Part shown: in pieces, positions 9,592 to 64,000 of the stretch | How the letters are laid out: every line of letters begins with the position of its first letter | Numbering within the stretch: position 1 is the stretch's first letter | Source: Psammoneis japonica | Taxonomy: Eukaryota | Direction: 5' to 3' | Assembly: GCA_008632985.1 (NCBI GenBank) | Contig: QPGO01000024.1 | Location: forward strand, 186,001 to 250,000 | DNA: 64,000 nucleotides | Translations under genes and position numbers: made by a program | Notes under the pieces: generated by a model | Database searches by the model: none | The model's input: the letters and a program-made list of their open reading frames with translations, nothing else | What the model was told of the DNA's origin: nothing

Positions 9592-9661
9592 CAAGCTCTG
9601 TTGGCGCTCTCATCTCACTCTCCCCGCCCAGAGCGTCCGCTGTTCAATCCATTGCAACAAC

Positions 9662-26726: not shown

Positions 26727-27226
26727 GGGTGTCCTGGCACGCGCGCTGGTTGGTTGGTTGGTTGGCTTGTGGAGGGAATCCTGAGGGAATTCTGCCAAAT
26801 TTGTCTCGCTCGCGGGAGGATGCCTCGCACAGTGTGGTTCGCAACTCAGACTTTTCAGTCTTACGGACCAGCCGCAGCCGCTGCATGAAAACACACCAAA
26901 AAAACCAACCGCAGGGGCTGCAGTAAAAATCAGTGCTCACATTCAGTCCCGGATTTCTCGTTTTTGTCGCTCCAGAAAATGACAAAAAAAAGAGCTGCGA
27001 GGTTCTGCCCAGCACCAACTGCAACATTTGTTGTGCACACGTGGCCCACTTCGACCTGCTTGACGAATGTAAATGTTCAAAATGCACATTTGTATGAGAG
27101 AAAGCGAACTGTGTCAGATTTGTCGTAGTGCCACCAACAAGCTGCCGGCACATGACGATCTGCCACCAAACTCACAAAATTTCTGGAAGGCGCAACGGTG
27201 GTGACTGAGGCCCGTTTTAATCAACC

Positions 27227-28980
27227 ATGAGTCGTCAAGCCACTGTCGGCGTCACTGCCAGGCGTCGAGCCACCGTTGCCCCGCCAGGTGGAGGAGACGA
27301 AGAACGATCCGTGCACCAACATCTCGCAAGAAGCAACTCGTCTTCTTCTGTCAGCAGCATCGAGAGTTTGCCAAACATGCCAAGAGTGTTTAACTCACCT
27401 CCACCATTCACTGACACACATTGGTCCGACGTTGACACGGATGACGAGTCTGAAGAAGGGCACAATCCTCCACCCGTTGGGGATCCGGGTGTTTGCAGTG
27501 GCAAAGACAGAGAGGGCGACAACGAATCCCTCAAATGTCGTTGCCCAATCGCTGGGCGATTTGCCACCAGAAAGCCCGTCAAATGGCTGGGTCAAGTGCA
27601 CGAAGAGCAACAGCTTGAGCAGCATTTTCAGGATTGTCGTGTTCGAAGGGGGTTGGGTGATTTTGCAGTGAATCTGCTCACTGGTGGACAAGTGCTTTCT
27701 TTGATCCATCCTGTCTGCCATGACGACACGGATCTGTGGAAAAACCAAGCCAAGATTGCCAAAAAAGGTCACATGTTGCACAAGTGTCGTCGTGAAAAAT
27801 GGCAACGCGAACAAACCGAGGGAGCACGTTTGTAAGCGGCGGATGCGGCTTCAACTGTGACGCCGACAGATGGCGCATCCGACACTGCTGCTGCCGACAC
27901 CGCTGCTGCCGTCACTCCTCATCGCAACGGCACTCAAGGCATGCCCCGACTTGGTGATTTTCTTGCAAATGATGCAGGAAAGCGGGCTTTGACTGCCATG
28001 CTTAGAGAAGCTAAGATGGCCGGCTGGGACCAATCGCTGGGGTGCGGTCGATGCACCGCTTGGCTTGCCGTCCGTCATCCTGTTTGGATCAACCGAGCAC
28101 AACGTGGCATTTTGTCTCAGTGAGCAATGTGTTGAATGCATTGTCATTTCCGTTGTGTCATTGCCATGCAATGTCTAATGTGTTGTTTGTTTTCATTTTT
28201 GTGTGATGCAGATTTCACCCATTCAGCATCGCTCTCTTGCGTCGCAAGCTGAGTGCTGCTGAAGCTCGAATTAAGGCGGATTTCTGCCAACAGGGAGCGC
28301 ATGGCACCGATGAAAGTGGCGCTGTGGGGGAAAGTGAGTTTCCCCAACATGCAACACTTTTTTGTGAGCATTTCTCCTGGGTGGAGAATCGTCCTGACGG
28401 GCCAGCAGCAACAAGAGCGCGTCAGGATGCCAGGCGCCATGTTGAAAGGAGTGCCATTGGTGCCATGGTGCCTCTTGGTGGGAGTGATCAGACTCTCTGT
28501 ACCGAGCACTCTCATTCCAATCTTGGTCCAAACCAAGATGTTGCAAGCAGGAGCATGTCATCGGATCAAACCGAGGGGACGGAAAACATTGTCACTGCCA
28601 CCACTCCTGTGGATGCTGGCACTGGTGCTGCGAGAGCGAGTGGTCAGCGACGTGTCATTCATCGTGAGAGTGTCCCATTGCCCACGGGCATTGAGAATGC
28701 CATGATGGCATCTACACAAAATCTTCAGATGGGATTTGTGGAACTGGCAAGAGCGATTTCAAGCCCCCGTCAGCCACCTCCTCGCTCCATTTCTGATGTC
28801 CGCACCGAATTCACTCGGACGCGTCGTGCTCTGAGGGAGGCAGAAGACGACAATGATGAAAGGTCTGTTGGCTTTCTCAACAGGATGTTGGACTCCCTTG
28901 ACAGGGAAATGACACAGTCTTTTTCTGGATCTGTTGGCAGTGAGCGCGGTGAAAATGCCGATGCCGAAAATGTGGAGCAG
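27227..28980 (+). pseudogene. Probable Harbinger accessory ORF2, TpA-mutated
   Basis: Coding-like frames 27227-27835 and 28237-28980 essentially without Tyr; position opposite the transposase fits the two-gene Harbinger layout. Confidence 0.5.
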
Positions 28981-29469
28981 TTTCGTTCGAGTCGCATGTG
29001 GTCGATTCGCTGCCATTGTGTGCGCTGGTTCTGGAGGATTGAATCCTCCAGCATTCGTCATGCTGTGGATTACATTGCAAATTCGAAACAACCGAGCATT
29101 AGCTTGTTGTCGTGTGCACTGATTCTGGAGGATTGGATCCTCCAAGATTCATCATGCTGCAGATGGTTGAGCGCACCGTTGTTTGCAATGGCAAAATGGT
29201 GACCATGGAACCCTTTCAAAAAATGTTGACACATCTGTTTAGCACATTCCTGCAGCAGACACACAAAACCTTGTCAGTGTTGTTCGCATCACACTTGACG
29301 ACACGACATGAACGACATGATGTGATGCCGGCACAATGTTGCGCAATTCCATGTGACACGACAGGATGCGTGCCGGCACAATGCAGTGCAACTCAATTCC
29401 TGCTAGACACACAAAAACACATCAGTGTTGTTTGTGTCATGCTTTGTGATGTGATGACAGCTGAAGAAA

Positions 29470-31005
29470 AAGCAAAGCCATTTTAAAAAAGAAAACTGTG
29501 GAAATTGGCATGTGTTGCCAAGATCCACCTGGGGCGCCGCCTCCAGGATCTCATCAAGCGGCAAGTGCGACTCGATGGAGGGAGGCAGCAACTCGAACAT
29601 GCTGCACACCGACGAGCCATTAAAACATGTGCAGCAGTTCATCAAGAAAAAAGACACAATGCACATTTTTAGTTTCTTGGGACCCGAGTTGTACAGCCAA
29701 AGCATGTCCCTGTCAAGAAAGACACGAAACAAATTGATGCGATTCGCGAGCAAGTGCTCGATGGACTCATGCATCGCCGCCATGCGGTGATTCAGATGTT
29801 CTTCTTCAGCCGTTGCATGGTTGAATTGTCCAAGCATTGTAGGGAGCAACTGAAAGATTGCGGCTGCACAAAGTGCAGGGAAATGGCCTCCCATGCGAGG
29901 CAGAATCCTCTCAAGGCACTCGCTCAAACCACTCAAATTAAGCATGCCATTGTCATTGACACTCAGTGTGGCCCCAAAGACACTTCCCATCATCCCATTG
30001 GAAAAAAGAACAACTTGAAACTTTAGTCCATGGGCTCAAAAGTGTCTGCTGTAGAATGCATGCTGGATGTCCACAATAATGTCAAACACTCGCCTTGCCT
30101 CGTCACCTGGTCTGGGAGTCTCCAATCCGCAGTCATCAATGAAGCCGAACATGCGCTGGTGCTCAAATTCCAAATGTGCAAAAACAAACTCACCCCTTCT
30201 TAAGCCATTGTCATGTTGAACTTCCTCTCGAGTTGCTCTAGAAACCAACCGGCGCCAGATTGCATGCCTGAATTCGTCAATGTGTGGCACCCACGCATCC
30301 ACAGATTTTCCAGATGTCTTGTGGTAGAACGTGTTGTGCAAGTGATCAATGAAACAGTCCATCGCCCAAGACCACCTTCTGGGGTCACCACCAAATCGTT
30401 CTGGTGTCATTCGAGTCCACTTGTCCCCCCGTCATCATCTTGCTCAGACAAACAACAAAAATCTCTTCACTCGTAAGAACACAGCAATTCGCAACCCTGA
30501 CGCGACCTTCTGGAAAGCGAAGATGGCGATGCAACAGCCTTAGCTGAGCCTTTGTAAGCCGAGTCCATTCACAGCAATTGGTCTCAGACAACGAATCGAT
30601 TGTCCGGTTTCTCACTGGTGTTCTTTCAGGAGGCGGTCAGTTGCGTGTTGAGCTCGTCACGCATTCACGCCATCCTGCAAGGCAGCTTGTGGTCAGTCCA
30701 AAATAGAGCTGAAGCACCGCAAACACAAAGAAAAGAACTTGGTCAATGACATCATTGCTTGAAAGGATGTCATCGCCACCCCAGAAAACCAAAGCAATGA
30801 TGGCTGCAATTCGGGCAATCAATTCCTGCGTCGTCGTAAAGTTGAAATAAAAGAGACGTCTCAACAGTAGAACGGTGAGGACATCACGTTGAGACAGGGC
30901 ATCATGCCGATGCCTCCAGTTCGTGCGCCGATGCACATTGCGATGAATGATGTGATCGTCAGCATCTTCTCGGTGTCGACGCCGAGAGCGCCTTTGCCGA
31001 GGCAT
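29470..31005 (-). pseudogene. PIF/Harbinger DDE transposase pseudogene
   Basis: MFGFIDDC, QHAFYS, HGLKFQVVLFPNGMMGSVFG, NDNGMLNLSGL, LNHRMAAMHESIEH; frameshifts and stops. Confidence 0.8.
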
Positions 31006-31082
31006 GCGGCACGTAAGAGGTGACGAAAACAACACCGTTGCGAATGTTTGATGTGATTCATTTTTTTTTGTGACCATCGAGG

Positions 31083-32485
31083 AACGTCAAGAACTGCCGC
31101 ATGACCCAAGATGGGGGGCTCCCAAACAGGACAAAGACACCTCTTCACCGCCGATTCAACAAAGGGGTCCCCCAGGGGACAGGCAGCAGTGGCCTTCTGC
31201 CGCAGATCCTTCCCAAAAGGAAAAGGAAGAGGGCGTCAGCAAGCCTTGGGCAGGAGCTGGCGAGGGTGCTCCAGAAGGAGCAGAATCTCGTCCTGCATGG
31301 GGGGAAGAGAAGTCAGCTCACACAAACCCGCACTCTGTCTTTCAACAGCGGCAGCAATCGCAGGAGGTGCCACAAGCGGACGCGCAGCCTGCACTTTGGC
31401 AATTGCCTCGTCAGCAAGGTGTAGACCAGGAGCAGAAGCCGCCACGACAACCGCAGCTGCAGCAGCTGCAGCAGCAACAAGATCCACAACAGCAATGGCA
31501 GCAACAACTTTCTCATCAGAGATCACCGGAGCTTCAGCAACGACGTCCACTGACGCAACAACATCATGTGCAGCAAATGCCACAGGAACAGCAAAAACAT
31601 TGCCCTCACTTTCAACAACAGCAACCAGGGTGTGGCCAATGTGGCACTTTGCCGGGACAGTCTGGGCAGCATGGACAACATGGCGGACCACCTCCTGGAC
31701 AGCATGGCCATCCAGGCCAACATGGAGGCCCGCCCGGATGCGGCCAACAGCATGTGCAGCAGAATCAGTTGGTTGACCAGTCAAAAGCTGGCAGTGGTGC
31801 CGTAAAGGAGGCTCTTGGGAATGCTTGGAGTGGCATTCTGGGGTTTCGAAACAAGACAAAGGAGGTGGCAGGGCAGGCGAAGGATGCAGTTGTGTCAAGC
31901 ATGGCAGCTGCTGGCCAGTCCATCAGCACAAAAAGCACCGGTGCGATGCAACGAAAGCCATGACGTAACGGTGGTTGCGATGTCGTATCTCAACTTGTTT
32001 GCTCTTCCGCGCTTGGTCAAACAGGTGTTTTTGAACAGGCAAAATCGACTCTCGGATCTGTCTTTGAGTCCAACCAAGAGAAGAAGCCTCCTCATTCTTT
32101 GTCAGGGCACCAGTCTGGGCCACCTGGACATGGCCGCCCTCCACCTCAACAAGGCTGTCCGCCACAACAGCATGGTGGTCATCCTCCTGGCTGTGGTCAG
32201 CCACAAGCTCGAGGCAGTCCTTCACATCCACACATGCCGACGCATGCACAGAGTCAGCCACCCATGCAGAGTCAGCATGGTGGAGCTCTTCAAGGACATC
32301 CACCCCAGATGTGTCCCCTGAGACAGCAGTCTCAACCTGGGGGACCGCCTGACCCTTCTCAGCCCGACACTCAGACAGCACAACCAGGACATCCCCATCA
32401 GCCTCAACAGGTTCCTCCCCAAAACCAGAGGCAGAACCAGGAGAGAGATGCTTGGCAGCACCCCGGATCATCTGGAGACTGCTGG
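31083..32485 (+). pseudogene. 5'-truncated, hypermutated copy of the WW-domain gene
   Basis: Lacks the start and WW domain; Tyr codons changed to His/Cys; stop TAG changed to TGG; intron retained. Confidence 0.95.
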
Positions 32486-34862
32486 CTGTGTCGCCAAGGC
32501 ATGCGCATTCTTTTCTAAAGCCAGAGCAACCCCGCAAAAGGACGTCACTTTTTCTTGACGAATGCCATTTGCAAACATGTCTTCAGGTCTCATCGACAGA
32601 TCATGCCAAGAAAATGCCTCATTCTCATCTTACATTGTTGTCAAAGTGACACTCATGTCGGCTTAGAACTTGTCCTCCCACTGGAAGTCGTTGCTTTTCT
32701 TCCTTGATTCCGACCCGCCACACAAGCGCACTCGTGTCACGCGTGAAGGGCAGGTGGGAATGCCAAGCCACTGGCTCTGTCTCACGCCGGCTGTGTTCCT
32801 CAAATGTCTGTGATGCACCAGTGGCACAGAACTCATGACACACTTTAGCTGGGCCTTGCTGGGAAAGACTGGGAACTCATTCATCCTGCCATCATGGAGT
32901 TCTGAGGGTCATCATCACTTTCAGCCGACTGACTGAGTGGACAAACAACTTGATGGGTCCACAAAGAACTCCGCCACTTGACAAGAGGCATCTCAAATGT
33001 TGTGATTCATTGTGTGGTGAGGCAACCAAAAAGATTCAGTGGGCTGTGAACTCACCAAATCTCAGAGTTTGGTGTGCAGTTGATGCATCATTCTTGTGCA
33101 ACAGAAAATCACAGAATGCAACTGCTTGGCAAGAGGCATGTGTCACATGATGCTGTGGTGGCTCCACATGACAAGGCAACCAACTGAAAAGATTCAGAGG
33201 TGAGTTGCAGAGTTCAACATGGTGTTTGTTGCTTTCACCTTGACCAGACCACTTTCCTGAAATTAAGAAAAAGAAACAAATGACTGTGGCAGGAGCCCCT
33301 CTAGTTTTCAAACTGCTGTTCTTTTCATTGGCAAAAACCAGAGCAAGGTTGCAGCAGCAGTTGTGACCAGACATCATGTGCTGCAAAGGTGAGAGATGGA
33401 ACCTCACTTTAGATCAGCACGCAGCAACACGCAACATCAAAAACAACTCATCACACACCTGCTTGCACAAGCTCCAACCACTTGCTCTTCTGGCATGCAC
33501 AAACGTGGTTGCCAGAGATTGAGACAGCCAGAACAAGCTGATGGGATGTGCAAAAGTTGAAACAAGAGAAATGTCTGTGGACAATGTCAAGACAAGTGCC
33601 TGGCATTGGATTGAGTCACCTCTTAAAACAAGAAGTGGAAGAAGAGCACCCTCTTGACAACTTCACTCAGTGCTTGTGCAGCTGATCAAAAGCAAAAGGC
33701 TGTGCAGAGCACACAGCACAAGGCACAAGGCACAAAAGCAATGCCTTGCTGCATGTTTGCCAGGCATCTGCTGCTGCTGATGCCAACTTTGGCTGGCCTT
33801 GACATCCTCCTGTGTGCGTTCTTGCCCACAGGATGATCGGCTGGTCTGTGCTGGGGGAGTGTGCAAGCCACCAGCCTCCTGTCAGAGAGTTGTGCCATGT
33901 GCTTGGTGTCAACACAGTGGTGCCAAAAAGATGATTCTTGCCTTTTGCGTAAACCCCCCTGCCCTCCTCACAAAAAACTCTGCCACACAAACTCTGCTGT
34001 GCCACTCACAAACTCCAGCCTGCCCTCTGTTCACACACTCTCCCTCAACCCACTCTCTCACACCACACAACCTCCACAAACTTTGGCGCTGTTCCCTTGC
34101 AAGCTCCACCCACTTGCCCCAAACTCTGCAAGCTCATGAGCTTTGGCTGCCTGCAGACTCTGTTACTTGCTGGCTCTGTCCTCTCACAAGCTTTGCCTGT
34201 TCACAAACTCTCAGCCTGTTCACAAGCTCCTCAACCACCAAACTGGTGCTTGCAAACATTCCACCCATTGGCAGTGCTGAATGAACACCCTGTTAACGCA
34301 CGAGCAACTTGTCAAGAGTGGCACTTTAGTCCTCAAAAAATGCCACACTGCCAAGAGGCCATGGCTCATGACCACAAACAGCCACCCAACAGCATCGCGC
34401 TTGCAGCTCGTGCAGCCACACCAGCCAAATGGTGTTGCTCGAGATTTTCTCTGTTGTGCCACAGAACATGTGCCGTGGCGCAGCCCAAATGCAGAACATT
34501 TTGGGTGGAAAGTGGTTGGAATGGTTCAGGCAATGGTGGGCAAGTGCTTCCAAAGAGCAAGAGATCAACAACACAACACAACTGCACTGCTGGCATCCCC
34601 TCCACCCATGGGCCAGTTCTGCCCATCTGCCCCCAGCCACAAGAGGATGTTGTGGTGGTGTGGCATGTCGGTCAACCTGCTCCCCAAGAAGAGCCAGGAG
34701 CAGGCCACAACCATGGCAGATGCGGGCAGATGCTCTTCTAGGGCCCTGGTGTCTGCAGCTGTGGGGCCCTGGTGGCTACCGGCAGCTCTACCCTGGAGCG
34801 AGAGAAAGAGAGAGAGAGAGGTCACCCAGCCGCTCCATCCATCGCGCACCAACGGTGTATTG
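31083..34862 (+). repeat. Segmental duplication, copy 2 (TpA-hypermutated)
   Basis: Colinear with 22949-26726. Confidence 0.97.
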
Positions 34863-36619: not shown

Positions 36620-38550
36620 ATTTCAAGCCTGTTCATGATAACAAGACCTTTGCTGTTGCGATGTCACACCACACAGTCACGTCACCTTGAAGGAGTGGTG
36701 AATCGTCAAAAAGTTTCGTCAACTCCCTTTGTCACGCATCTTGCAGCGGGCGGCGACAGCTCGACAGCGGAAGCCTCGAGCACAGCCAACATGTGAGATG
36801 CCATGCAGCATGATGTGCGCACATCGTTTTGAAGCACCACAGAGCTGACATGGTCTCTGATTGTTCTCTCATTGCAACCCCCCATGCTTCATGCAAGCTT
36901 CTAAGGTGGTGGCCCTGTTGATGATCGATTCCATCAACAGCTCCTCTGGCCTGTGAAGAGTTCTCAATGTACATGGCTCCTCAAAAAATTTTCAGCAATC
37001 TGAATGTCTAATGACCATCTGCCTCAAAAGCAAAAGAGGTTCTTCCTTGCAACAATGTGGAAGCATTGTGGCAGAAACAAATGATCCAAGGTGTGCTGTC
37101 ATCATTGTGGTTGCTGTTGCAGAGTCCTCCATTTCTCTGCAGGTCATGTCTCTCATGAACTTTTTGTTCTTTGTCACAAGCAGGCAACAAACATTGCAGC
37201 ATGATCATGTGTGGCTGACATCACCAAAAGGAAATTGATGAAGAAGGGAAGGCAGCGAAAGGCTGCCCATGTGTTTTGTCTCTCCCAACATCAACCAAAA
37301 ACAAGCTGGAGTCAATCCACACCACCATTCATCAAGAGGCTGCTGCCAAACCCACCTGAGCTCCATTTTGCTCTGCTGGAGCAGTTGCTACAATCAAGGG
37401 AAAGCAACATGTGTTTTTGACATCTTTGACAGCCAGCCATTCTTCTGGGTGCAAACCACAATTTTGATGCAAAGATTGCAGCGGCACCTCTGCACACCTG
37501 AACTTGCTGCTCACAAATTGCTCTGGGAAAAGTGCACAATTGCAATTTGTGGCATTCCAGTTGCTGCTGCCCCAGTGGTGGCTTGCACTTTCTTTCTGCC
37601 CTTTTGCACCATTGACCCACACACCCTGCTGTTTTTTCTTTCTTTTTGTGACCATGCTGCCCCAAGCTTCTTTCACTGTCTTGCTCCCCAAAGCTGTTGT
37701 GCTGACTCTGTGCCAATGAAGCTGTGTGTGTCTGATCAACCAAGAAGCAGTTCTGCCAAGGGATGAGGAACAATGTGAGTGCTGAATTGAGCTCTGGCTG
37801 AAAGTTGCCATGGCCCAGCATGGCTCTGCTTCCTGCTGGCAGCCCCAAGAAAGCTTCCTCATTTGCCATTGAAGATTGTGCCTCTTGTTGCTCTCACTGG
37901 CAGCCAGCAACAACCAGCAGAGGAGATGAGTGCCAGCACCTCAGCAAAGAGCCATAAAAACAATGAGAGGAGTGCGCCCCCGCTGGCCTCAGGAGAGCGC
38001 AGATCACAAACAAAAGAGCTCTTCTTTTCACTGAGGTGAAAGCAAGCTTTGCTGGGGTTGTGGCTGCTCTCTTTGTGCAAAAACAAGCCACCTCAGAATG
38101 TGGACAATGCCCAGCAGAGCTTTGCTGCTCTTGGTCGCAGCGATTTTGTTGCTGGGGGCAAGGGCAGCAACAAAGCCCTCTTGAGAGCTGTTGAGCAGCA
38201 GGAGGCTGTCACATCAGGTGGTGGGGAGATGCTGTCAGAAGCACAGTGAGGAGACAGGAACAGATGACTTTTTTGCCTCTTTCAGCAAGCGCCCTCCTTT
38301 GTGGGGCTTTTCTCTTTCTCTCTTGCTTCCCACGCTGGTGGGCTGCAAAAGCAAAGAAGATTTCATTTTTTGCACAGCCCACCAGGAGGGCCACAGCAAA
38401 TGCTGGAAACTCAGTCCACATGCACCACTTGTCCTGGTGATTGCACACATGAGCAATGGAAATGTGTGGTGGTGATGTTGTGTGTCCATCCCAACTTCTT
38501 GTTCTCACGAAAGTCAAAAATAAACAGGACCGGACAGACAGATGCAGTGC
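36620..38550. repeat. TpA/CpG-depleted degenerate repeat relic (unclassified)
   Basis: Almost no TA over about 1.9 kb; overlapping Tyr-free pseudo-ORFs. Confidence 0.65.
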
Positions 38551-46927: not shown

Positions 46928-47764
46928 GTGCTCTTGTTCTTGTTAACACATAACCCGACATGCATTCTTCACAAGAGTCCCGTTTCTCGCTCAATCACTT
47001 CTCCCTTGGAATGGATCGCTTCCTCCACAAATTCGGGTCCAACTAGAGTCCTTCAAAACACAGAACAGAGTCGATCGCTGCCACCGGAGCCAGCAGCCGC
47101 CAATCCCAATGTAGACTAGTAGCAGCTTTCACTCGTCGTCATGTCGTCCCAGAAATCACGCAAATGAGGTTCTTTCTGTGAATCGCACCGTTCTTGCCAC
47201 TGCCCGTCTTGACTGAGCTCGGGACAAAACTCGAGCATTTATTTCCTTCGACAACGTCTTACTCACAGCATCTCTGGTGCTTCTCTGTGGGCTCTCTTCA
47301 ATGGGTTTTAAGTGGCATGCATCACGCAGCGCTACGCGTGGTGTGGCGTGCGTAACATGGAGGTGGCGTGAGGGCGAGCGGTGGGGTCTGACACCATGGT
47401 CACCATGGCATCTTTACCATAGCAGGCCTCCAGTCTACAGTACCGGCAAGCGGTCGATAGATCGGAGCATTCTTCTTAAATAAAAATATCGCAAGAAATC
47501 TTGAACGGAGAATCTGAGCGTTTTGATTGGCTCTGATTTATAAATTTTGGCTCTGAGTTAAAATTATTTTAACTCAAGCAAAGCGGGCAGGCGCGCTCCG
47601 GATGAGCGTACAGACCATCACCGCGGAGACAACTACCGGGTATACTAACTACTGTAGTCTACGGTACTGTACAGCACCGCCCGTAGCTCTCTACCGGTGC
47701 TCTTCACAGCAGTAGAGGAGGGCCCTCTACCGTGGTAAGAAGTGTAGAGATAGCCTAACACACA

Positions 47765-50700
47765 TGCCGGTGCACGCACGTGTGCGACAAACCATGGATG
47801 TGCGCCAAACAATGCTGTGCAGGGCCCCACCAGCAGGAAGAATCATTGCGGCCCTCATGGCAGTGAAAGTGGACATTGTGTGGTCAATGCAGTCATGCGA
47901 ACAAGGGGTGGTTGTCGAGCGCAGTTTTCGCGGGCTGTGCGAGTGAGGTCCGAATCGATTCTGGCGCCGTTGTCAGCGTGTTGCCAGGTTTTTGTTGTCG
48001 TCTCGGCATGGCATCGATGGTCTCTGTGTGCAGTGTGTCAGCAATCATTCCATGTGAGTGGTCTGGCCCAAGTGGGGTCACTCAGCATTTGCAAAGGGAT
48101 GGGCCAGCTCCATCCTCCCATTGAGGACATCTTGAGCTGATCTGGGATGAAGGGACATGTGATCCCCTGAGGCAACGGTGAGTTGCCCGTGCCAAAGTGA
48201 TGCTCATTCTCGCGTTGACACAGCCGCATGCCTCTGAACATGGCTTTTGCCATTTCTCAGCTGGTTTTGCAGAGATTCTGCGCAGCACTGCTTTGGTTTC
48301 CTTGCCAAGCAGTCCGTCGCATGATGCGACGAAGGGAGTGAAGTGGCGGCATTGCTCAAGGCAGGGCTTGAGGTGCTTGCACTTTTTCTCTCGTTCGTGT
48401 TGTTCCAGAACTTCTTCCGGTGTGTTGTGGACAGGTGTGACTTCACATCCGTGTCCGGAGTGCGAACATCCATGACGGTGTCTGCCCTTTTGTCCCAAAA
48501 TCCTTTGGACAAAAGATCTCCGTGATCGCCATCCTTGGACATGTTGGAGTTTGTGTTGCCTTGGGAGTTGTTGGAGGAGCCTGGGCTTCCTGAGATGTGA
48601 CCAATGAGGTTGATGAGGGGTTCGTCGCGCATGCAGGAGGGCTTGAAGGCCGCTCCAATTGGGCCGCCGAGGTCATCACGCACATCATCATGTCGTGAGA
48701 TGACCAGGCCGCCCTTTTTGCACTGCAGGGCATGGGCGGTGGAGAATTTGCAGGCACATCCATTGCAGTGCTCCGGGAGGTTGGGGGGAGTGCAGCCATG
48801 TTGTAGATGGAGCGCATCATGGAATTCTGGACAAGAGAGTTCCGCGCCATTTATGATCGATGGGTGCACCGACAGCCATGCTCCAGCACTGGTGCTGCAC
48901 TTGACAGCTCTGGCTTTGAGGTTGGTTGGAGTTGGGAGGATTGTCTTGAGTTTCTCCTCGTGCATCTTGGCTTTCCCATTGGCTGCTTCTTCTTTCACTT
49001 TGCGCATGGTGTCCTTGTGGACTGCTGAAGAGAAATCTGAGCGGCCGCGGAGTGAGTCTGTCACGTGAGAGCATGTGAGAGCACTTGCTTCACAGTTTTG
49101 GGATGCAGACTCCATTGGAGGAGGGATGGACAGTCCTGCAAATTTGATTGGGAGGGCAGATGGGGCCAGTCTTGGATCGTCGTCAGCCAAGGTCTCACCA
49201 ATTGGTGCTGGAAGGAATTGGTGCTGGATCGCGCTCTCTGCTTCCGCAAAGGATTCGCTGCAGTCCTTTGCTGCACATTGGACACATTGCCACTGGTGTT
49301 GCAGGGACTTTTGAAGACCGGTGCAGGTGGTCTGCGGGTGATGAATCGCGACATTTGCGAGTCCTTGGATGACCAAGGTCCACGACTCGGCTTTCTTTGC
49401 CAGCCATCGGTCGTGTGCATCCGTCTCTCTGACGAAGCCTCCAAGGCAGTGGCCACCTGAGCAGACAGTGAAGCCGAGGTCTCCAAAGTGCGCCCTGGCG
49501 CGTCCCAGGTTGTGTTCTGGGACCACCAGGATGTTCTTGTCATTGGCGGTGGGGCAGCAGCCATGCTTGGGTCCTTCAACTTGAAGAGTCAAGAAAAATT
49601 CCCGAAGGACATTGAATTTCCCAGCTGCAGTGGAGTCGTCAGCGTGCCATGGCGTGAAAGCATCTTGATGGATGTCACTCAGCTTGCGGACTGGTGGGAG
49701 AAGGCCCAATCCATGGGCTGCCATGCCAAGTGGGTTGCCCTGCATGACACCTTCCTTGCTGAATGGTGCAAAGGCGGTGCCAAAGTGTCCGCAGACAATT
49801 GGGATGCACCAATGCTTGCAGCTGTTGAAAGTGAACCTGGCGCCAGATGGCCAGAGGTGTCCAACGTTGTGTGACATTGGGACTCTGTTCTCCTTGTTGA
49901 AGCCGTTGGAGGCGTCGACGAAGAGGAAGCTGCAGTCATCCTCGAACTTGTGCTGTTCCCAGAGGAGATTCATTATGCAGAAATTGTGTGGAAGAGCACC
50001 AGAAACAATCAATTGTCAGTTTGTCCACCCTTCCGTGTTTGAATGTCAACTTCTCGGGAAATCAATTCAAATGTCATCTGACCAAAGGCGTCGCTCTTCA
50101 CCATGTAAATCAAAACACCTTTGGTCAGACAACATTTCAATTGAGTTCCCAAAAAGTTGCCAGCTCCAATCACCCTCCTGCATGACATTGTGTGTGTTTC
50201 CACATGATTCTTTGGCATTTTTCCTCATGCAAAATGCCAATTGTGACTCTTGCGACATTTTCGAATGATTCCCACTGTTGTCAAAAAACCGCCGGAGCTG
50301 ATGGCGACATTGACATGGCAAACAAGGTGTCCAAACATTTGTTGTTTCAAGTCCCACTGCAAGAGCAGGCTGATTGTGCTGCTGCCTTTCATTTGGGGTT
50401 GCAAAGGTGCTGTCACTGAACGGCAGTGAGCCGAGTTTTGTGCTGACACACTGCGCCATTGCACCCGTTCGTGACATGCCATGTTGTGCAGACAATGCAT
50501 CAACTCACCATTTGTTGGATTTGCTGCACCCACTGCATCAAAGTCTGAGTTTGTAAAAAAGGAAAGCAAACTCAAAATCAAAATGGTGCTGTCAATGCAT
50601 CCACGGCTCAGCGCCGCTTGTTGTCTCACTCAACTTTCTCGCCGCTGCAGTCAGCTCTTGTTGTCTTTCCCAGCATGAGCACATCAACAAATCCAGCATC

Positions 50701-51620
50701 ATCATGAAATTGTCAAACCCATTTGATCAGCGCTGCTGACCAGATGAATGTTTTTGAAGACTTTCACAAAGCAACTGCAGTGCACTCAGCCAAGTGCTCT
50801 TGAGCGGTGGAGAAAGTTCTTGGGCGGATGAGAGAGCAAAAATGAAGAATCAAGTTGGCGTGCGGTTCAAGAAAAAAGCATCCAAACAATGCTGACAAAA
50901 TTGTTCTGATGACATCATTTTACAGAGCAACAAACATCAGTGAATGGAGCGCTTCTCCCTGGCTTGCACACACTCTGGATTGATCACAAAGAGGATGAGG
51001 GCACAAGAAACATCAAATCTGAAAATGGAAAAAGTGTGTGGCGTGCAAATGAGCACTCATGGATTGCTCGCCCATTTGCAGGAGCAAGAAAGAGGTCAAA
51101 TGCAGTTGTCACTAGGTCAAAGACAAATTGGAGAGCAGAGCGTTGCCACAAAGTCAGCTTGTGATGATTCTGTCATCCAGCCTCGGTGTCGAGAACGACG
51201 GGTCAATTTCGCTTCATGTCGCACAGCGAGTCACATGTCTTGAACCCTGCATGACCCACTCAACTCAACATTTTTGGTGGAACTGTGTGGCCAGACTTTG
51301 ACCCCTGCTGCTGGAGCCCCAAAATGCACAAAATGCGAGCATTGTCAGTCTCATGCTCTTCAAACTGATGTCTCGCAAGAGTGTGCAAAATGACGGGCAC
51401 GCATTGTTTGTGGCATCTGGCACTTCAAAATTGAACTGACTTTTCATGGAGCACCTCTGTTGCACAGGCAAGTGCGAGAGTCAATTTGCAGTGATCGGTT
51501 GCACAACATACACCCCATTCCATTCATGCTGCACTGCAGATCTGCCACCGCGACGACGCGACGGTTGTTTTTTGAGGTTGGCCGTGGAGCGGAGACCCAA
51601 TGTCTCTCGCGCGAGCAAAT
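47765..51620 (-). mobile_element. Degenerate non-LTR retrotransposon with RT, zinc knuckle and restriction-like endonuclease (CRE-like), plus TpA-depleted flank
   Basis: VDASNGFN, EGVMQGNPL, WHADD (YADD), HALQCKKGG...RHDDVRD, GDLL..GFW...DVR, HEREKK.KH, FTPFV.S.DGLLG. Confidence 0.88.
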
Positions 51621-51799
51621 TCAGCTAGTCTGACGTCAGCATCGACTCGAAAAAAAAAAGAAGCGAAGCAAGTGCCGGTACATACTGTATTATAGTAGGG
51701 CCTACGAGCGACCGACGACGGCGCACAAGTCCCTTGCCCAATGCGATGCGTCACCTCGTCTCTCGATACCAACAAGACGAATGATAATCTCCGTATGAT

Positions 51800-55728: not shown

Positions 55729-56412
55729 ACTTCTGTCAATACCGGTGCGATTTGATGCGAGTATTGTTCACTTGTCAAAGCTGTCTATTCCGACTGATTT
55801 CTTTTCGGATTCCGATGGCTTTGCTATTTAGACAACTTGACAACCAAGAGACGCTACTTGTGGGTGCATTCGTTGTGTAATTGGTTTCAAAACCAGGAGG
55901 TTTGATGATGAAGAGCGAGGTTACTGTAGTGCTTTTGTGGGTTCGTTCGCAGCTTTCGGTTTCGTACTCCTCCTTTGACAACAGGCAGCAACGTTGAAAA
56001 AATCGTCACTGCTTTGTGCAACCACTATTCTCGTCCCTTAAATGAAATTGCACGATGACGTCAACTCAATTTGAAATGTTAAATACATGTAATGACGTAC
56101 TTAGACGTGTCTCTGACCTCAATGTTTGCGAGGCGGGTGGGTGTGCCTGCTTCCTCACGAGTTTCACAGATGATAGGGAGGTCTTCTGTTGTGATGTCAT
56201 GGATACTTAAATAAAAGCGAAAGTGACAGGCAACAACGCACTTCTCATCTTTCTGTCGTCAGCCGCTCAGTCAGCAACTGTCACTCGTTTTCCGACAACG
56301 TTAAATGAAAGAAACGTGCGTTAAATGAACGTCATTATTATTTGAATGGCAAGTTGAAGTGAGCTTGCGGCGTCGCGCACAGCCATGTCCGTCCGTGCGT
56401 GATCGAACGGTG

Positions 56413-56453
<41 letters not shown>

Positions 56454-56454
56454 G
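56413..56454 (+). repeat. (TGTC)10 microsatellite
   Basis: Read directly from the sequence. Confidence 0.95.
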
Positions 56455-56831
56455 CAACGACAAGGGCATGTTTGCCTTGGCCCGCCCCCATGTTTGCAAG
56501 CAGCAGAATGCACGGAGAAAATGCACATGCTGACAGAGATCCCAGTCAGGGACAAAGGAATTCACAGCACATTGCAAACAGCAGCAAGCATGAATGCTGT
56601 GTTTTTGTGTTGGATTTGTGGTGCCTGCTGGCGACAGAGCATGCATCCTGCCAAGGACAGGGTGACTTTGCATGTCCCAACACAGCCATTTTCACTCACA
56701 TGGGTGCTGGCTGGTGCCATGTTGGCTGGTGTGGTGTTGGGTTGCAGATCCAGCACTGTGCACAGACTGCTGCAGCAGGGCAGGGGGGGGGGCAGCTCAC
56801 ATGCCAGATTCTGCTTGTGCTGCAAGGGCAC

Positions 56832-59031
56832 CAGGGCAGAGTTCTTCTTGCGCACCTCAGTTTGGTTTTGCCGTGTTTTTGAACAGAGTTCCCCGGGATC
56901 ACCACCTTTTTACCCTGTTTTTTTATGGAAAGGGTGTTTTCCTGGGGAATTGCCATGAATTGCCCTTCGTCACATAAATGCTCAATGCACGAACAAAAAA
57001 TTGTCCATCGGCAATTCCCCGTGCTTCCCCATCACCCGCAGATGTTGCACCCGCAGCACTCAACAGCTCGGAGCACCATCCACTCAACACAATGACAGCT
57101 GCTGCGGCTTCTCCACCGCTGCAGTGCCTTCTTTTGTTGCCACACCACGTTGATGCAGCATCTGCTCGCTGTCACGTTGATGGTGCATCTTTCTTTTTGA
57201 TGCCGCACATCCGGCATGTCATTTCATTGAGATGCACGTCCAACGTCTTTTTGTTCATGCTTCCTGCGCTCACCCGTGTCTTTTCATTCAGTTTCGCACA
57301 CCATCATCTTTGTCATTCACATTGCATGGGTTCACTTCCTCTCAAAAAATGCACGTTGGCACATGAGTGACGAAGAGCAGGAGGATGATGCTCGCATGAG
57401 TGTCGGCAGCAATGTCGCTGCTGTCGCTGAGGAAGAGGAGCTCTCAGAAATCACAAGCATCTGGGACGATGAGTTCACATCTAAGGATGCAGGCAGCTGG
57501 ACGTGTGGCTGGTGCAAGCACTCGTGCAAGGGCATCAAAGCTGCAAAAGCCATTGCCCATCTCTGCAAGATCAAGAGGATGCACGTCAAGCCCTGCAAGG
57601 CCAAGATCAGATGCCGATGATGATGGCGACAATGACGACAATGCCGAGTTGGGTGACAATGGGTCTGGCGCAGTGGACCTGGCAACAATGGCTCAGCAGG
57701 CGTGGAACAAGCGGCTGGTGAAGTTGGAGAGCAAGTTTGCCAAAGTCGCTTGGCTCCTCTGTGTGCAGCCAGAGGTCAGGGAAGATGTAGATGCCAGGTC
57801 AACTGGGGAGGATCAGAATGACATGATGAAGTCATGCCAAAGCTTCTCTCTCATGACGCAGATGCTGACGTTGCCCTCACCCTGGGCACGTTTTGGACAG
57901 AGCACAAGCACTTCTCCAAAAAGACGGGGCCATTCAGTCACATGAACAGGTGGAACGTTCCTGATGTCGCCAAGGGAAACTCTTGGTTGTGGCATGAGAA
58001 ATGCTCCTCCCACATGCCAAGGTTCTTGGGTTTGTTGCTTGCCGAGCTGCATCCAAGTTGCTGGGCATGGGTGCAGCTGAGAGGTCATGGGGGGCATCAA
58101 GCAGCTGAAGACTGACAAGCGTTCTCATCTGAGTGGAGACAAGACAGAGAAGCAGGCCATCATCTGCACCACGGTGCGGCTTCAGGAAGCAAGGCACGAG
58201 AGAATGAGAAGGAGAAATTGGACTCTGGCAAAGGGAGTGTGTGGGGCGACAATGGTGCCAAGTTTGACCTGGGTCTTGAGAGATTTGGGGTGGACGTGCA
58301 GAGCCTTGGAGATCTCCCAAAGTGGAAGTTCAGGTGCTGGCTGGAAGACTGGGAGCAGCCGCTGCTCAAGAAGAATGATCCAGTTGCGGAGGCCAAGCTG
58401 CTGGAGAAGTGCAGGGGCTTGACGTTTCATGTGGTGGACGACGACGCTGCTCACACCATGTTGAGCAGCAACCTTGACTGCCAGAAGGGTTAAATGGTGG
58501 GTGGTGTGTCCTTGGAATGCCTCCGGATTATGATGGTGTTGATGATGCAGCCTTGGAGCCATGGATGATCATGGGTGCTTGGTTGAGATGATCCAACAAA
58601 CCAAGCAGCCAGCCTCTGTCAATGTGGAGCTTTTGGAGATGGAGAACAGCAGTGGAATTGACAGCAGTGGCAGCAGCAAAGCAGATTAATTTAAAGTGCA
58701 ATTGCAACAGTCTAGAGTGCCGTGTGAATGACATTTTCTGCTCCACTCTACTGGAGCTGCTGCCAGCTGGCTGGCAGTGTGCAAGTTCTGTCTGCCTGCC
58801 GCACAAGATAAAAAAGCACATGCGCCAAGCCATGTCAATCCAGAATTGCCGCTTTCCACTCGTTTTTTGTTCCCCTCCCCTGACCTCTTTCAGACGTTCC
58901 TTCCCGCAAAATTACCCTCATTTCCCGGGATTGCCCCAAAAGGGAAAGGTGACTCCCCGTTGCCCTGGCCATTTTGGGGAATCCCCAAATGGGTAAAACC
59001 AAACCAAGTTGTGCACAGAGGCAGCACCCTG
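56832..59031 (+). mobile_element. Internally deleted, degenerate hAT-like DNA transposon
   Basis: BED-finger-like WTCGWC...AHL; C-terminal hAT-dimerisation-like LWHEK...SKLLG.GAAERSWG.IKQLK..KRSHL; imperfect terminal inverted repeats; no TSD found. Confidence 0.7.
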
Positions 59032-59039
59032 GAAGGAAG

Positions 59040-62000
59040 CCATGCCAGCAACAGCTGTTGCAATCACATCTGGTGGTGCGCAAATCTGAGATGCACGCCA
59101 GCATCACAAAAGAGTGTCTGTGTCATTGTGGCCAGCTGAGTTTGTTCCTCAGCTGTCAACTGCCTCGCACAAGCTCAGCTGACCCGTGTGATGCCAACAA
59201 ATTTTGCGCAGCAATTTGCAGCAAGGCCCTGCACCACAAGCAAACTTTTTTCAAATGACATTTTGCAAACGTGCATCACAGTCACCATGTGGCATGCACT
59301 GGTCTTTTTTCTCCCCTTTTTGCACTCGCCTTCACCTCCATTCATTCTGGAGCACATTTGTGTGAACTCTGACATGGCCACCAGACATGGTTGAAGCTGG
59401 AGTTCTCAAGTCTTGCTCAAATGTTGCAGCTGCCCAAGAAGTGCTCATTTGGCACAGCCCCAGGTCTTTGTTGAGAGCTGGTCATCCTCTTTGCAATGTG
59501 TGCGACATTTTTGCCATTGTTCTCCCAACAATCATGCCTTTGTGCCCCTGTCAATGATGTTTTGGAGTTTGACATTTTGAACAACAAAGGCTTGCCATCT
59601 GCATCATCTGTTGATGGGGAAGCACCCAACTTTGCTGGCTGGCCCACCACTGAAGAGGATTGTGTGGCTGCTTTGTTGGTTTGAGTCTGCTTGAGCCCAA
59701 GCCCTTGCCAGCCACTGATGAGGAAGATCTCATTGTCCCCAAAGTGCACAATGGCAAAACCATCTCTGTGGCCCACACATTGCCTCTGTTGTTCTGAGGG
59801 TTCCCCAATCAGCATCACCAACCAACTGCTTTGGGCTGTGCAAGAGGAGTTCTCAGCTTGGGCTGACTGTCCGCTGGCTGACAAATTCCCTCATTTTGCA
59901 CCTTCCTTGTGAAGCTTCAGACCTGTTGCAGTCATGGAAATTGGGGCATGATTCAGGGTGCCATTTGGGAGTTTGGGGTGCAATTTTTGCATTGTGAGTG
60001 CAAGAGCATGAAATTTGACATCTTCACTCTTCTGTGAGAAATGATGTGTTCATTGAATGTGTGCTCCTGAAAAATTGTTGACAACTTGGCAGGAATTGCT
60101 GGCCTGTTCCAGCTCCAGGTGATCAGCGCCAGTTCGATTCCCATCATTTGGCAATTTGTGCATTTGGCACATTGAACTTTTTCAAAATCCATTTTTTGCC
60201 AAATCGAAGGGCAAGTGTGCACTTGCATGCATTTTTGGGTGTGCACTTGCCTTTCGATTTTCGAAACGAGCAAAATTGAAGGAGTTTGATGCACTGAACT
60301 GCACAGAAAATTGGCCTCTTGCGTGCGTGATGAAAAGCGGATCACATGGAGCTGGAACAGGCCTGCTCCACATCTCTGATTTTGGTCAACTTGTGTGTGG
60401 GTGAAGCTGAACATTCCAATGACAGCATCAAAACACCGCGGTGTTTGGCAGCTCAATTTTGCAACCTTGCGCATGTCAAGCTGTTGTTTCGACAAGTCTG
60501 GTCCATTGACAACAATGTCATCGACATTGTGTGTTGCTGTTGTGTCCATGGGCAAGGTTTCAGTGACCACATGGTGTGTTTTTCTTCTGAAATGGCATGA
60601 ACTTGCCTTCATTTTGTTGTCCATTGAAGGCAATCTCATCTTTTCTTTATGAATGCTTTGTGGTGGCTCCCCAGCAACAAGTTTTTGCATCTCTCACTGG
60701 TTGAAGTTTGTTGTTGGTTGTTGGTTGCCATTGTTGTTCAACATTCTGATGTTCAATGCCATCATGGATCATGATGATGAGTCTGTTTTTGCACAAAAAT
60801 TGCAGGCAAAAATCACATGTCTCTGGCGGTCTAATTTTTGGCTGTGAATTGTTTTGAGGAGTGTAAAAACGCATGACCAAAATCACACCCTGAATTGCAC
60901 CCCTTTGCCACAACTGCAGTGGGTCTCAGTTGATGCTGCCCAGTGTTGTGGCTCCCACGTTAAAGCAAATTCCCTTTGAGACTGTTTTTTCCTGACCAAT
61001 CAATGTGAAAACAGCCCGCTGCAAGAACTGTCTCCTGGCATCCCTGTTTGCAATTTTGCTTGTTGAAAACTCAAAAGCTTGTTTGACAATCCTCTTTTTG
61101 CAGCCAGACCTTTGCAATCTCAACATGGTTCTGGATCAGCCAATGGTGGTTGCAGGCCATGTTCCACAATGGCAAGTTCAATGACAACAGCAATTGGAAA
61201 CTTTGCAAGAATGATGCAGAAATGAAGAACAGAGAAACTCTCAGGAACTGTGTGTGCAGGATCATCATGGCCCCAATCTCACCCAATGGATGCACAAAAA
61301 TGCAGTGCTTGCAGTGACGCCATTGCCTCCAACAAAGCAGCAGAACTTGCGCACACTCTCTTCCTGTGTCTGCAACAACTGCACAAAGATTTCTGGTGCT
61401 TCATCAGATGGCAGAGGAAAATCACTTGTGCCCCACAAAAGCGCTGCTCATGACCTGACAGAGATTCCTCCACATCTGCTGGAATGGCACACCAACTGAG
61501 ATGTGCAGCAATTCATGCATGTCCTCTTCTGCTCCAACTCAGTCATCCCCTGGTCATTTTGAGCACAGCTCACCATCCTCTCTTTTTGCCCACCCGCTTT
61601 CTGCATGGCCAGCGCTGTGCTTTCCAGTGGGGTGGGAGCTTCAACAAATCATCCAAGAACTGTTTTTGTCCCCAGCCCATCTGAGCCAACCTCCCAAATC
61701 AAGAAGAAGCTGCCTCCATCCTGTTGCTGAAAAATTTTTGCAACGAGGAAGTGTGCGCACCTTTTTTTCATGTTCTTGCACCTTCTTGGGGGTCTGGGCT
61801 GAGGTTTTGACAATTTCACAATTTTCATGGCCAGTGAGAAAGACACAGGGTCTTCCCAGGGCTTGCACTTGATTTCTTTGACCAAATCCCCCCAAGAACG
61901 TGCTGATGGGATGACTGGCTTTTTAGTGCACAGCTTCTGCACAAGGTTTTTCAGACAGCAGCTGTCTGGAAATGCCCCCCAGCTTGTTGACACTGTGGTT

Positions 62001-64000
62001 TGCCATCACTTTGCCATTGCTGCTTGGATGGGGCTTTTGTTCTTCTTTGCCCTTTGGCTGCTGGCTGCACACAACTTGATGAAAGCTTCTCCTGTCAACA
62101 GAAGATTGAGCCAGTCCAAGCTTTTCATTTCACTCGTTTCAAGAGTGCATGTGTGAAGTCATTCATTTGACATTTTCTGAAATGGTGCACAACATGATCA
62201 CTGCTCAAGGAATGTCATCCCACAAACACCTCTTCTCTCCTCCTCCCGTTTCTCGCATGGACATGCCCCAGTTAAGAATTTTTGCACCCAGACAAAGACA
62301 CCATCAAGAACTCAAATTTTGAGCTGGTCTTTTCTCATTTCATGCACATCAGTGCCAGCATGTGCAAGAAGATCTTGGCAGAAAGAAGAGTTTCAGCAGA
62401 GTGGAGCATTGCTTCCAGCCCAAGAGCAGCAGCAGCAATGTGGGCATCCAGCCTTTGGTGTGAAAGGTGGCTGCAAAAAGCAAAGGCACCTGGGCCCCAC
62501 TTTTAGAAAGTGAAGCAGCACAAACTGCCCAAGATCAACACACCATGGGGGAAAACATGGGCACTGTGCAAAATGTTGAACCATTTGTGGCTTCAGCACA
62601 AGCAACACAAATGATGGAAGAGTGCCAAGACACTGCCAGGACATGTCATGCTCCTGCAAATGAAGGCTTTGAGGCTCTTTTTCACAGTGCACATCTCTCA
62701 GCAATGTTGAAAACAAGCCTCTGAAGCCAGCTGTCAGCTCTGACACTGTGGCAAGTTCCAAGGTCACAAAGAGCAAGAAAATTGGAGAATTGACTCCTGC
62801 TGCAAAAAGAAAAATCTCTGTGCCATGCTCTGATTTGGGCACTGGCTTCACATCTTTCAGACTTGTGCCAGCGTCAATTTCATGTCATCATGATGCATGA
62901 GATCATGGGCAGAGGCACAAATGCCAAGAAGCTTGCTTGGCACAGGAAGCACTTTGAACCCCCGGTGCCACATGATTTGCCACACTGCGTGATGACACAG
63001 CTTTGACTCCAGATGATCTGTGCAGTGTTGTTGCCAGAGCCACCGTTGGCATTGTTTGATGGGAACCAAACCCTTCTGTCATGTTCTTGCCTTGTGTTGG
63101 TTGGTGCAAGGACAGCAAGACAATTTGCCAGCAGCTTGACACCAGCCAAGAAGGAATGTCCACTCACTCCTCTGTTTGGTGTCAGCAACACTGCTCAATT
63201 GGCCACAACAACACACTGCAGGTGTGGCACATGTGACTGCACATGCAAGAGAAAGAATGATGGCAAGCTTCTGCAAAAGCTGCCAGCACCTCTCCATCAG
63301 AGTTGTCCTGTGGACATGCAGCACAAAAAAGTGCAAATTCTTCATTGTCTCAAATGATGCTGCCTGTGACTTGACACGTTGTTGGCCACACAATGAGGGA
63401 GCACAGAAACAGAGATGCATTTCTTCATTCTCACATCAACAACAAAGTGAGCCAGCTCTTGACACAAAAGGAGTGGCTCTGCTTGCAGAGCATTGATGCT
63501 GGCAGAAACAATGCCCAACAGATTTGCTGATGCTTGAAGAGTGGGCGGGTTGCCATTTGCCAACAGGGCACAATTTGAGGGACATTTGTGGTGCAGCTGC
63601 ATGTGCTCAGATCTCACTGAAAGTGCTGGCTGGAGTCAGCAACAAGGCCTGTGCCACACAAGAGAAATCCAATTGATTGGCTGCAACATTGGCTTTGCAC
63701 ATGACTGCGCATTTGACCAATTGAAAAGCTGCAAAGAGGACAATGGAGATGGGCTTTTTGCAGTGGCTGCAGAGTCTGGAGAGATTGTGTTCATGCCACA
63801 TTGGTGCAATCTCTTGCAGCCAAGGATCATGCCCATGCAGCAGAGCAAGTTGCAGGATGGCCAATTGATGTCCCAAAAGTCTGCTGCTCCAGCACATTGC
63901 CAAACAAGGAATCTTTTTAGGAAGAAAAATTTGCTCAAAACATCACATGCCACCTTGGTCATTGGCATTGGATGAACCTCATTGTCCACACATTGGAAGA
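59040..64000. repeat. Long, strongly TpA- and CpG-depleted degenerate repeat region (unclassified TE relic)
   Basis: About 8 TA in about 5 kb by eye; dense overlapping Tyr-free pseudo-ORFs. Confidence 0.7.

Follow-up and report, generated by a model that had tools for sequence, protein, structure and literature searches.

In a 64,000-nucleotide stretch of the diatom Psammoneis japonica (contig QPGO01000024.1, positions 186,001 to 250,000; the window hereafter) the dinucleotide TpA is almost erased from four islands, one of which, at 47757-51625, contains the relic of a non-long-terminal-repeat (non-LTR) retrotransposon. Domains of this kind, repeated or derived from transposable elements (TE), have very probably undergone a strand-symmetric mutation of the DNA itself, bounded by the domain, that changed TpA to TpG or CpA to near saturation, with a slower decay of CpG alongside. 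The change would be an A:T to G:C transition, on either strand, at 5'-TA-3'; the slower decay of CpG would lead to TpG or CpA, as expected for methylated TE DNA. The island at 47757-51625 would be one such domain, built on the non-LTR retrotransposon, whose reverse transcriptase (RT) was probably killed mainly by these two kinds of change.

The composition of the island is extreme. Its 3869 bp contain 8 TpA (at 48804, 48852, 49974, 50106, 50554, 50921, 51113 and 51509), against 225.9 predicted by base composition (rho 0.04). Control windows of the same length outside the islands hold 130 to 214 TpA each, and the lowest of all 21,610 is 130. TpG and CpA reach rho 1.58 and 1.71, and CpG stands at 0.59, a depletion that the initial annotation had not mentioned. 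The borders are abrupt: dense TpA continues through 47756 and resumes from 51626, the last inner TpA being that at 51509, and the density directly flanking the island is normal on either side. The initial annotation, made from the letters alone, had placed a sharp edge at about 47760, and these counts bear it out. An alternating pyrimidine-purine tract of 26 nt lies at 47757 and may be either the tail of the element or converted host flank. The stop triplets on both strands comprise 186 TGA, 5 TAA and 3 TAG. Since TAA and TAG contain TpA, they are erased and never created by such a change, and frames stay open; open reading frames (ORF) longer than 100 codons occur in all six frames because nearly all stops left in the island are TGA.

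The retroelement is recognized through its relatives. A phmmer search with the 603-codon ORF that contains the RT relic returned 5305 matches, the best at 2e-109 and 38-42% identity, while Pfam gave no match to the same ORF even at E 10. Against the PDB, a profile built from the ORF together with 19 relatives found R2 proteins best (8e-14) and LINE-1 ORF2p next (9e-11). RVT_1 is weakly matched in four of eight long homologs and lies above the Pfam cut-off in one of the eight, and none of eight full-length homologs has an apurinic/apyrimidinic (AP) endonuclease domain (Exo_endo_phos). Located 3' of the RT is an invariant C..C..H..C motif (C417, C420, H428 and C432), which is presumably the CCHC motif that accompanies a PD-(D/E)XK nuclease; no tool confirmed a C-terminal nuclease domain or fold. 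The relic is frameshifted near 48378-48429 and its C-terminus continues in the neighbouring frame 48082-48672(-), as also found by tblastn with six long homologs as queries. The N-terminal 392 profile positions were not found in 49974-51640 by profile mapping. On these features the element is filed as a dead non-LTR retrotransposon, putatively of the kind with a C-terminal endonuclease. It has the R2-like RT core in common with the R2/CRE type; the invariant C..C..H..C and the lack of a detected AP endonuclease domain in the homologs would be further likenesses. The present copy, however, is dead (HADD, frameshift, undetectable N-terminal part).

The damage to the RT follows the dinucleotide pattern. 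The motifs WHADD, GPKHGCC, HCLGG and EKKCKH had been quoted as occupying positions normally held by Tyr. All four are present, the first three in the 603-codon ORF and EKKCKH in the neighbouring frame. At these places 19 homologs have the consensus WYADD, GPxxGYxPEP, RYLGGFIG and EKKxKYL. The ORF is free of Tyr, as had been claimed (0 in 603 codons), with 5.97% His, 4.31% Cys and 3.98% Arg, where the 150 best homologs average 2.38% Tyr, 2.76% His, 2.37% Cys and 7.02% Arg. A column was counted as a Tyr column when at least 30% of 40 homologs, each of 600 residues or more, have Tyr there; eight of the 20 such columns lie in gaps of the query. In all 12 alignable columns, the tabulation proposed at the outset, the ORF has Cys (seven, TGC or TGT) or His (five, CAT or CAC).

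The same holds beyond Tyr. Over the in-frame residues 1-525 there are 92 columns conserved to at least 80%, and the ORF deviates at 22 of them. Nineteen of the 22 deviations can be derived from a codon of the conserved residue by at most two changes of the type TA to TG/CA or CG to TG/CA, whereas 2000 draws of random codons gave 2.2 on average and never more than 9. The protein was therefore near intact when these two types of change destroyed it. The losses comprise Tyr to Cys or His, including the catalytic YADD to HADD, Leu to Ser or Pro, Val to Ala, and Arg to Cys, His or Gln, the last because of the parallel CpG to TpG/CpA component. The view that the protein was disabled by missense changes and not by stops is supported by the 12 Tyr columns, the 19 explained deviations and the scarcity of TAA and TAG.

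Relatives of the element are not built in this way. The alternative that active members of the family naturally encode His or Cys at these positions and are poor in TpA fails, as the homologs bear Tyr there and related loci are normal in TpA. In 80 of 80 related metagenome loci rho TpA is 0.33-0.92, a sample biased by a seed pattern that demanded Tyr and so excluded mutated copies. Among the 150 best representatives the signature is borne by one protein, P0167, an RT relative of 396 residues from an unrelated public metagenome contig, with 0.25% Tyr and with Cys (five) or His (two) at all seven Tyr columns that it covers. A low-Tyr cluster with Attheya proteins was also considered as a bearer of the signature and rejected, because P0151 and the Attheya protein P0275 keep the conserved Tyr.

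A duplicated host gene in the same window allows the change to be followed from one copy to the other. A direct repeat of 3.78 kb (22949-26726 and 31083-34862) has copies 8134 bp apart with 96.7% identity and 110 mismatches. The first part of copy A, which carries the 3' portion of a WW-domain gene of the host and its downstream flank, is outside the large island, and the corresponding part of copy B lies within it. Along the 1812 bp where copy A is outside the island, 54 of its 61 TpA are changed in copy B (26 to CpA and 28 to TpG) and seven are kept, a loss of 89%; copy A retains all 61, including those of the non-coding tail up to 24753. By comparison, 193 of 194 CpA and 92 of 93 TpG are unchanged. 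Among the 81 CpG of copy A, 14 have become TpG or CpA, two have become ApG and 65 are kept, and the other 1528 sites differ at 11 (0.72%). The per-site loss in copy B is thus -ln(7/61) = 2.17 for TpA versus 0.0072 for the other sites, about 300-fold, and -ln(65/81) = 0.22 for CpG, about tenfold slower than TpA.

The frame of the WW gene is still open in copy B, with 271 of 292 residues agreeing between the two proteins, and all eight Tyr of the shared part are converted (four Cys, four His). The duplicate shows that TA changed to TG or CA in place, on chromosomal DNA and on both strands equally; it also shows that sequence other than a TE is affected once it lies in the domain, while the other copy of the same sequence is untouched. 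The strand balance of the duplicate (28 TG versus 26 CA) is matched on the sense strand of the RT, with seven TGY versus five CAY. The base 3' of the edited A gives TAY at 14 of 19 informative sites, which is not significant (two-sided binomial p ~0.06). The second halves of the repeat lie inside the island in both copies and are TpA-poor in both with few differences, and their loss therefore predates the duplication. The 4.35 kb that separates the copies contains a Harbinger-like relic; a tandem duplication followed by insertion, or a capture, are candidate origins of this arrangement.

The islands were delimited by a 500-bp dinucleotide scan across the window and sum to about 23.3 of 64 kb (~36%). 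TpA is near zero in all of them, TpG and CpA reach 1.5-2.0 times the expected level and CpG is reduced (rho 0.07-0.87, with 0.07-0.3 in the older islands). Outside the islands the background is rho 0.61 for TpA and 0.97 for CpG. Pfam found no family match at E <=0.01 for 44 island ORFs of at least 130 residues. Among 106 ORFs of at least 85 residues that overlap islands no TE family was found; the sole strong match is the flanking host TruD gene, and the others are weak and at chance level. The six read-through frames of 56340-58990 gave no Pfam match, and regular expressions for transposase motifs were uninformative.

Two putative DNA-transposon relics in the islands bear the same marks. The Harbinger-like relic matches DDE_Tnp_4 (PF13359) at E 0.0066 and 16.5 bits, under the curated cut-off of 24.8; its one homolog, P0271 (42% identity), itself scores 21.4 bits, again under the cut-off. 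Eleven Tyr of P0271 are aligned, and the relic has at these places three His, three Cys, two Phe, one Leu and two Tyr. For the hAT-like relic neither the sequence nor its homolog P0292 has a Pfam match. The nearest named Atlas clusters of P0292, by language-model likeness, are all Dimer_Tnp_hAT (scores 0.89-0.93, with 165 shared features, under 170), and its six aligned Tyr are replaced in the relic by three Cys, two His and one Met, with none kept. That the signature spans unrelated TE classes is plausible. The initial annotation had asserted independence of TE class; this stands in so far as the host-gene duplicate inside an island bears the signature, and is weakened on the side of the Harbinger and hAT class labels.

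The state of other copies of the element can be read from a public run (run X1), analysed as k-mer contigs and probably derived from the same sample as the assembly. Its contigs agree perfectly with the left edge (47597-47916) and carry 0-2 differences in other parts. Summed word depth is 55-63 in unique flanks versus 140-6927 from 47461 to about 51485, and depth stays repeated up to about 51485-51646. The TpA-poor element thus stands at 5 to more than 100 times the unique depth, with 830 contigs at least 90% alike and 69 variant places (18 C>T, 20 G>A, 14 T>C, 5 A>G and 12 transversions). The context was classified for 40 of these places. This copy has TG or CA and other copies TA at eight, TG against CA at two (one adjacent pair), TG or CA against CG at ten, CG against TG or CA at five, and TA against CA at one (51509); the remaining 14 are other changes. 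These contexts agree with a continuing erosion of TpA and CpG after the copies separated. Inside the island the window also differs from a run X1 contig by one TA>CA and by two CG>TG, a hint, and only a hint, in the same direction. Within the island, repetition in this run peaks at 50037-50358 (depths 6927 and 2288, 35-110 times unique), which has no recognisable coding. To the left of the island, the stretch 47461-47621 is repeated about 16 times (depth 985) with normal to high TpA. Many contigs end at 47586, and this repeat may be young or untargeted.

Table 1. Coordinates of the islands, relics and genes of the window.
Feature	Position	Strand	Evidence or remark
TpA-depleted island	47757..51625	.	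dinucleotide counts; multi-copy in run X1
Presumed 3' untranslated part	47757..48093	-	end includes alternating pyrimidine-purine tract CACATGCCGGTGCACGCACGTGTGCG
C-terminal domain in another frame, EKKCKH	48094..48429	-	profile positions 900-1010, 113 bits; tblastn agrees
Stop-to-stop ORF, 603 codons	48204-50015	-	contains RT relic; no Tyr
Dead non-LTR RT with Cys/His motif; YADD read as HADD	48378..49973	-	40-homolog profile positions 393-917, 489 bits
TpA-depleted repeated DNA without recognisable coding	49974..51625	.	degraded 5' element part or another relic
Ethanolamine-phosphate cytidylyltransferase gene, right of island	51788-53035	+	protein matches
Copy A: 3' part of host WW-domain gene and downstream flank	22949..24760	+	outside island, normal TpA; WW domain 1.3e-12
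Copy B: duplicate of copy A within island	31083..32894	+	TpA, CpG and Tyr converted
Second repeat halves	24761-26726 and 32895-34862	.	inside island 24754-34862, TpA-poor in both copies
Large TpA-depleted island	24754..34862	.	rho TA 0.11, CG 0.49
Harbinger/PIF-like transposase relic	29406..30431	-	one frame, single internal TGA; DDE_Tnp_4 below cut-off
Old TpA- and CpG-depleted island	36903..38520	.	rho TA 0.04, CG 0.11; no Pfam match
TpA-depleted island reaching window end	56340..64000	.	rho TA 0.04, CG 0.27
hAT-like relic	57822..58490	+	38% identity to P0292, E 6e-36; family label a lead only

The neighbouring sequence belongs to the host. The best matches of the cytidylyltransferase, at no more than 77% identity, include proteins of Epithemia, Thalassiosira, Pseudo-nitzschia, Amphora, Nitzschia and Cyclotella, and the window is therefore diatom nuclear DNA. 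Intergenic tracts rich in CTAG, GTAG, CTAC and GTAC occur at 21640-21950, 41060-41370, 47609-47756 and 51679-51703, of the type tctagagtagagcactac. Here TpA exceeds expectation (51 in 21501-22000, rho 1.38) and TpG/CpA fall short of it (0.70), the mirror image of the islands, and two of these tracts flank the island at 47757-51625. Two short stretches low in TpA, 1-620 and 8500-9500 (rho 0.10-0.18, TpG/CpA slightly raised), may be small or partial islands; the second adjoins the gene at 9521-12238 for tRNA pseudouridine synthase D (TruD 2.8e-63). The last island carries at its left end a (GTCT)n-type microsatellite (56390-56460), which translates as VCLS or RQTD repeats depending on the frame. 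DNA of normal TpA also contains a direct repeat of some 380 bp that has diverged to 74% identity (45473-45853 and 46202-46572).

Several points weigh against the proposed history of domain-bounded TpA mutation. The process is read from sequence and not from mutations observed as they arise, and the enzyme is given as candidate classes only. Run X1, being probably from the sample of the assembly, is no independent proof against a base-calling artefact. The element is multi-copy in its TpA-poor state, and already mutated copies have therefore multiplied; a single insertion mutated once afterwards does not explain this, and either mobilisation in trans or segmental duplication, of which the window offers one example, would be needed. 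The repeat at 47461-47621 keeps normal TpA, so that not every repeat is targeted, and the Harbinger and hAT labels fall below curated thresholds. In addition, the in-silico reversion that had been suggested did not improve the profile score: it fell from 479.5 bits for the actual translation to 449.7 when all 53 His and Cys were blindly replaced by Tyr. Blind replacement also overwrites former Arg and true His and Cys, hence the drop, and the site-by-site tabulation is the more informative test. Masking the same 53 residues as X gave 396.0 bits and turning 53 random residues into Tyr gave a mean of 376.1 (20 controls), both far below the blind reversion; Tyr fits the 53 positions far better than chance.

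Another trigger has to be weighed in the first place. In a homology-triggered process resembling repeat-induced point mutation (RIP), the mutator would be aimed at duplicated or multi-copy sequence and not at a chromatin domain. The multi-copy island DNA in run X1 and the fact that copy B is a duplicate speak for it, as does DNMT4, a relative of fungal RID that many diatoms encode and that, in the available text of PMC9998398, is without an assigned function. It is nevertheless unlikely, since copy A has lost none of its TpA, tail included, where copy B lost 54 of 61, and since the repeat at 47461-47621 is spared. Moreover, A:T to G:C at TpA is the reverse of the CpA to TpA change of RIP, and the main target of a comparable process in the chlorarachniophyte Bigelowiella natans is single-copy, according to the available part of its description (10.64898/2026.01.13.699255). 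From the untouched copy A, the TpA-normal repeat and this single-copy target, a trigger by domain rather than by repeat is favoured. The possibility that modified T or A at TpA in silenced DNA is misread during sequencing or polishing, with TA still present, draws on the probable common origin of run X1 and the assembly. It is very unlikely: the contigs of the run repeat the left edge without differences and other parts with at most two, and each site has a fixed TG or CA outcome that is shared or differs between copies in the manner of inherited mutations. The unrelated protein P0167 has Cys or His at seven of seven Tyr columns, and the accessible part of the same preprint describes the changes of B. 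natans, measured with Illumina reads, as true mutations.

Editing of RNA and native composition fare still worse. ADAR-like A-to-I editing that acts on UA in TE transcripts and is then fixed into DNA by reverse transcription would suit a focal element that is a retrotransposon and the preference of ADARs for U 5' of the edited A, as given in the available text of 10.64898/2026.01.13.699255. The equal change of both strands in RT and duplicate, the signature in a host gene fragment and in DNA-transposon-like relics, and its acquisition in place by copy B make this explanation extremely improbable. A foreign origin poor in TpA, or selection against UpA/TpA, instead of mutation after arrival, has next to no probability either. 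TpA is mildly low throughout the window (the background noted above), and some viruses are reported to avoid both CpG and UpA. Against this stand the replaced catalytic and conserved Tyr, the 22 altered columns among 92, the TpA-normal relatives (in the Tyr-seeded sample) and a host-gene duplicate that lost 89% of its TpA while its other sites diverged by 0.72%.

Domain-directed mutation of the DNA, the explanation preferred here, is suggestive of an enzyme. By analogy with the TpA hypermutation of B. natans, an enzymatic genome defence against silenced or foreign chromatin is inferred. An ADAT/TadA-like enzyme that deaminates adenine would be compatible with the data; the natural substrate of these enzymes is A34 of tRNA, preceded by the conserved U33. 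A mutagenic modification of thymine would fit equally well, and as TA is its own reverse complement, the attacked base may be the A or the T without any difference in the outcome. A wider proposal, for and against which the case is evenly poised, is that diatoms carry a 5'-TA-3' DNA mutator (adenine deaminase or thymine modifier) guided by chromatin domains, which together with CpG methylation wipes out the coding capacity of TE, and that it is the same ancient defence as that of the chlorarachniophyte. If so, a TpA mutator may be widespread in the supergroup of stramenopiles, alveolates and Rhizaria (SAR). Host-gene duplicates trapped in a domain would then diverge very fast, losing each Tyr to Cys or His without gaining stops, because the mutator rewrites anything caught there.

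A TpA-directed DNA mutator would constitute a principle of genome defence distinct from RIP, APOBEC and methylation decay. The diatom case widens the phenomenon to a major and genetically tractable group of phytoplankton, and ties the loss of TpA in space to CpG-depleted (methylated) TE domains. Beyond the report on B. natans it contributes a saturated signature, CpG decay in the same places and a natural experiment within the window that yields a rate ratio, and its footprint would make the hunt for the enzyme practical. Annotation is also affected: relics from which TpA has been erased escape Pfam and yield long spurious ORFs in every frame, TGA being the sole stop left.

The closest known system is that of B. 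natans, and the literature search, with the supplementary tables S6-S11 of the preprint outside its scope, found this preprint as the sole matching report and none for diatoms. The available part of Mettrop et al. (bioRxiv 10.64898/2026.01.13.699255) reports 231 mutations from two integrated viral regions in mutation-accumulation lines, of which 230 were A>G or T>C; these 230 fell at TpA without exception, at about 1000 times the background rate, and appeared in some lines only. According to the same text, RT and DDE domains were enriched among TpA-poor coding sequences, and an ADAT2-like adenine deaminase is proposed as the enzyme. As far as this text goes, both systems show A>G and T>C at TpA on either strand, giving TpG and CpA, in local DNA of foreign derivation, at orders of magnitude over background and in clustered windows of low rho TpA and high rho CpA+TpG. 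They differ in lineage (a diatom, hence a stramenopile, here; a rhizarian chlorarachniophyte there) and, by the same account, in degree, with rho 0.04 here, and roughly one third of the 64-kb window affected, versus 0.45 in the region of a nucleocytoplasmic large DNA virus (NCLDV). The targets are TE relics and a trapped host-gene copy here versus giant-virus and virophage inserts in B. natans, and the basis is sequence inference versus measurement in mutation-accumulation lines. CpG loss is strong here (rho 0.07-0.6; 14 of 81 in copy B), whereas the B. natans type, as described there, is without an excess of G:C>A:T.

The simplest reading of the accompanying CpG to TpG/CpA change is that a second process, already known, acts in these domains: the decay of 5-methylcytosine (5mC). 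Diatom TE are methylated at CpG by DNMT5a, according to the part of PMC9998398 available; this methylation, followed by 5mC deamination, would explain the CpG decay of the islands and mark the same domains. It cannot explain the loss of TpA, which in copy B affects 54 of 61 TpA against 16 of 81 CpG. For mutation accumulation in P. tricornutum, the accessible text of PMC6604790 names CG, CC and TG as mutagenic contexts and mentions no TpA effect.

Fungal RIP is alike in outcome, with transition hypermutation, TE copies riddled with missense changes, sharp islands and host sequence caught as well. However, it proceeds by C>T, mainly CpA to TpA, and creates TpA and stops, whereas here TpA is destroyed and TAA and TAG are removed. 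It also mutates both copies of a duplicate, whereas here copy A keeps 61 TpA and copy B has lost 54. The APOBEC3 (on cDNA) and ADAR (on double-stranded RNA) systems of animals share the clustered transitions that inactivate mobile elements, and ADAR also the preference for a 5' U. On the other hand, they act on single-stranded cDNA or RNA, with a strand bias (G>A or A>G) and on retro-copies only, whereas the change described here is symmetric, occurs in place and extends to DNA that is not retro-derived.

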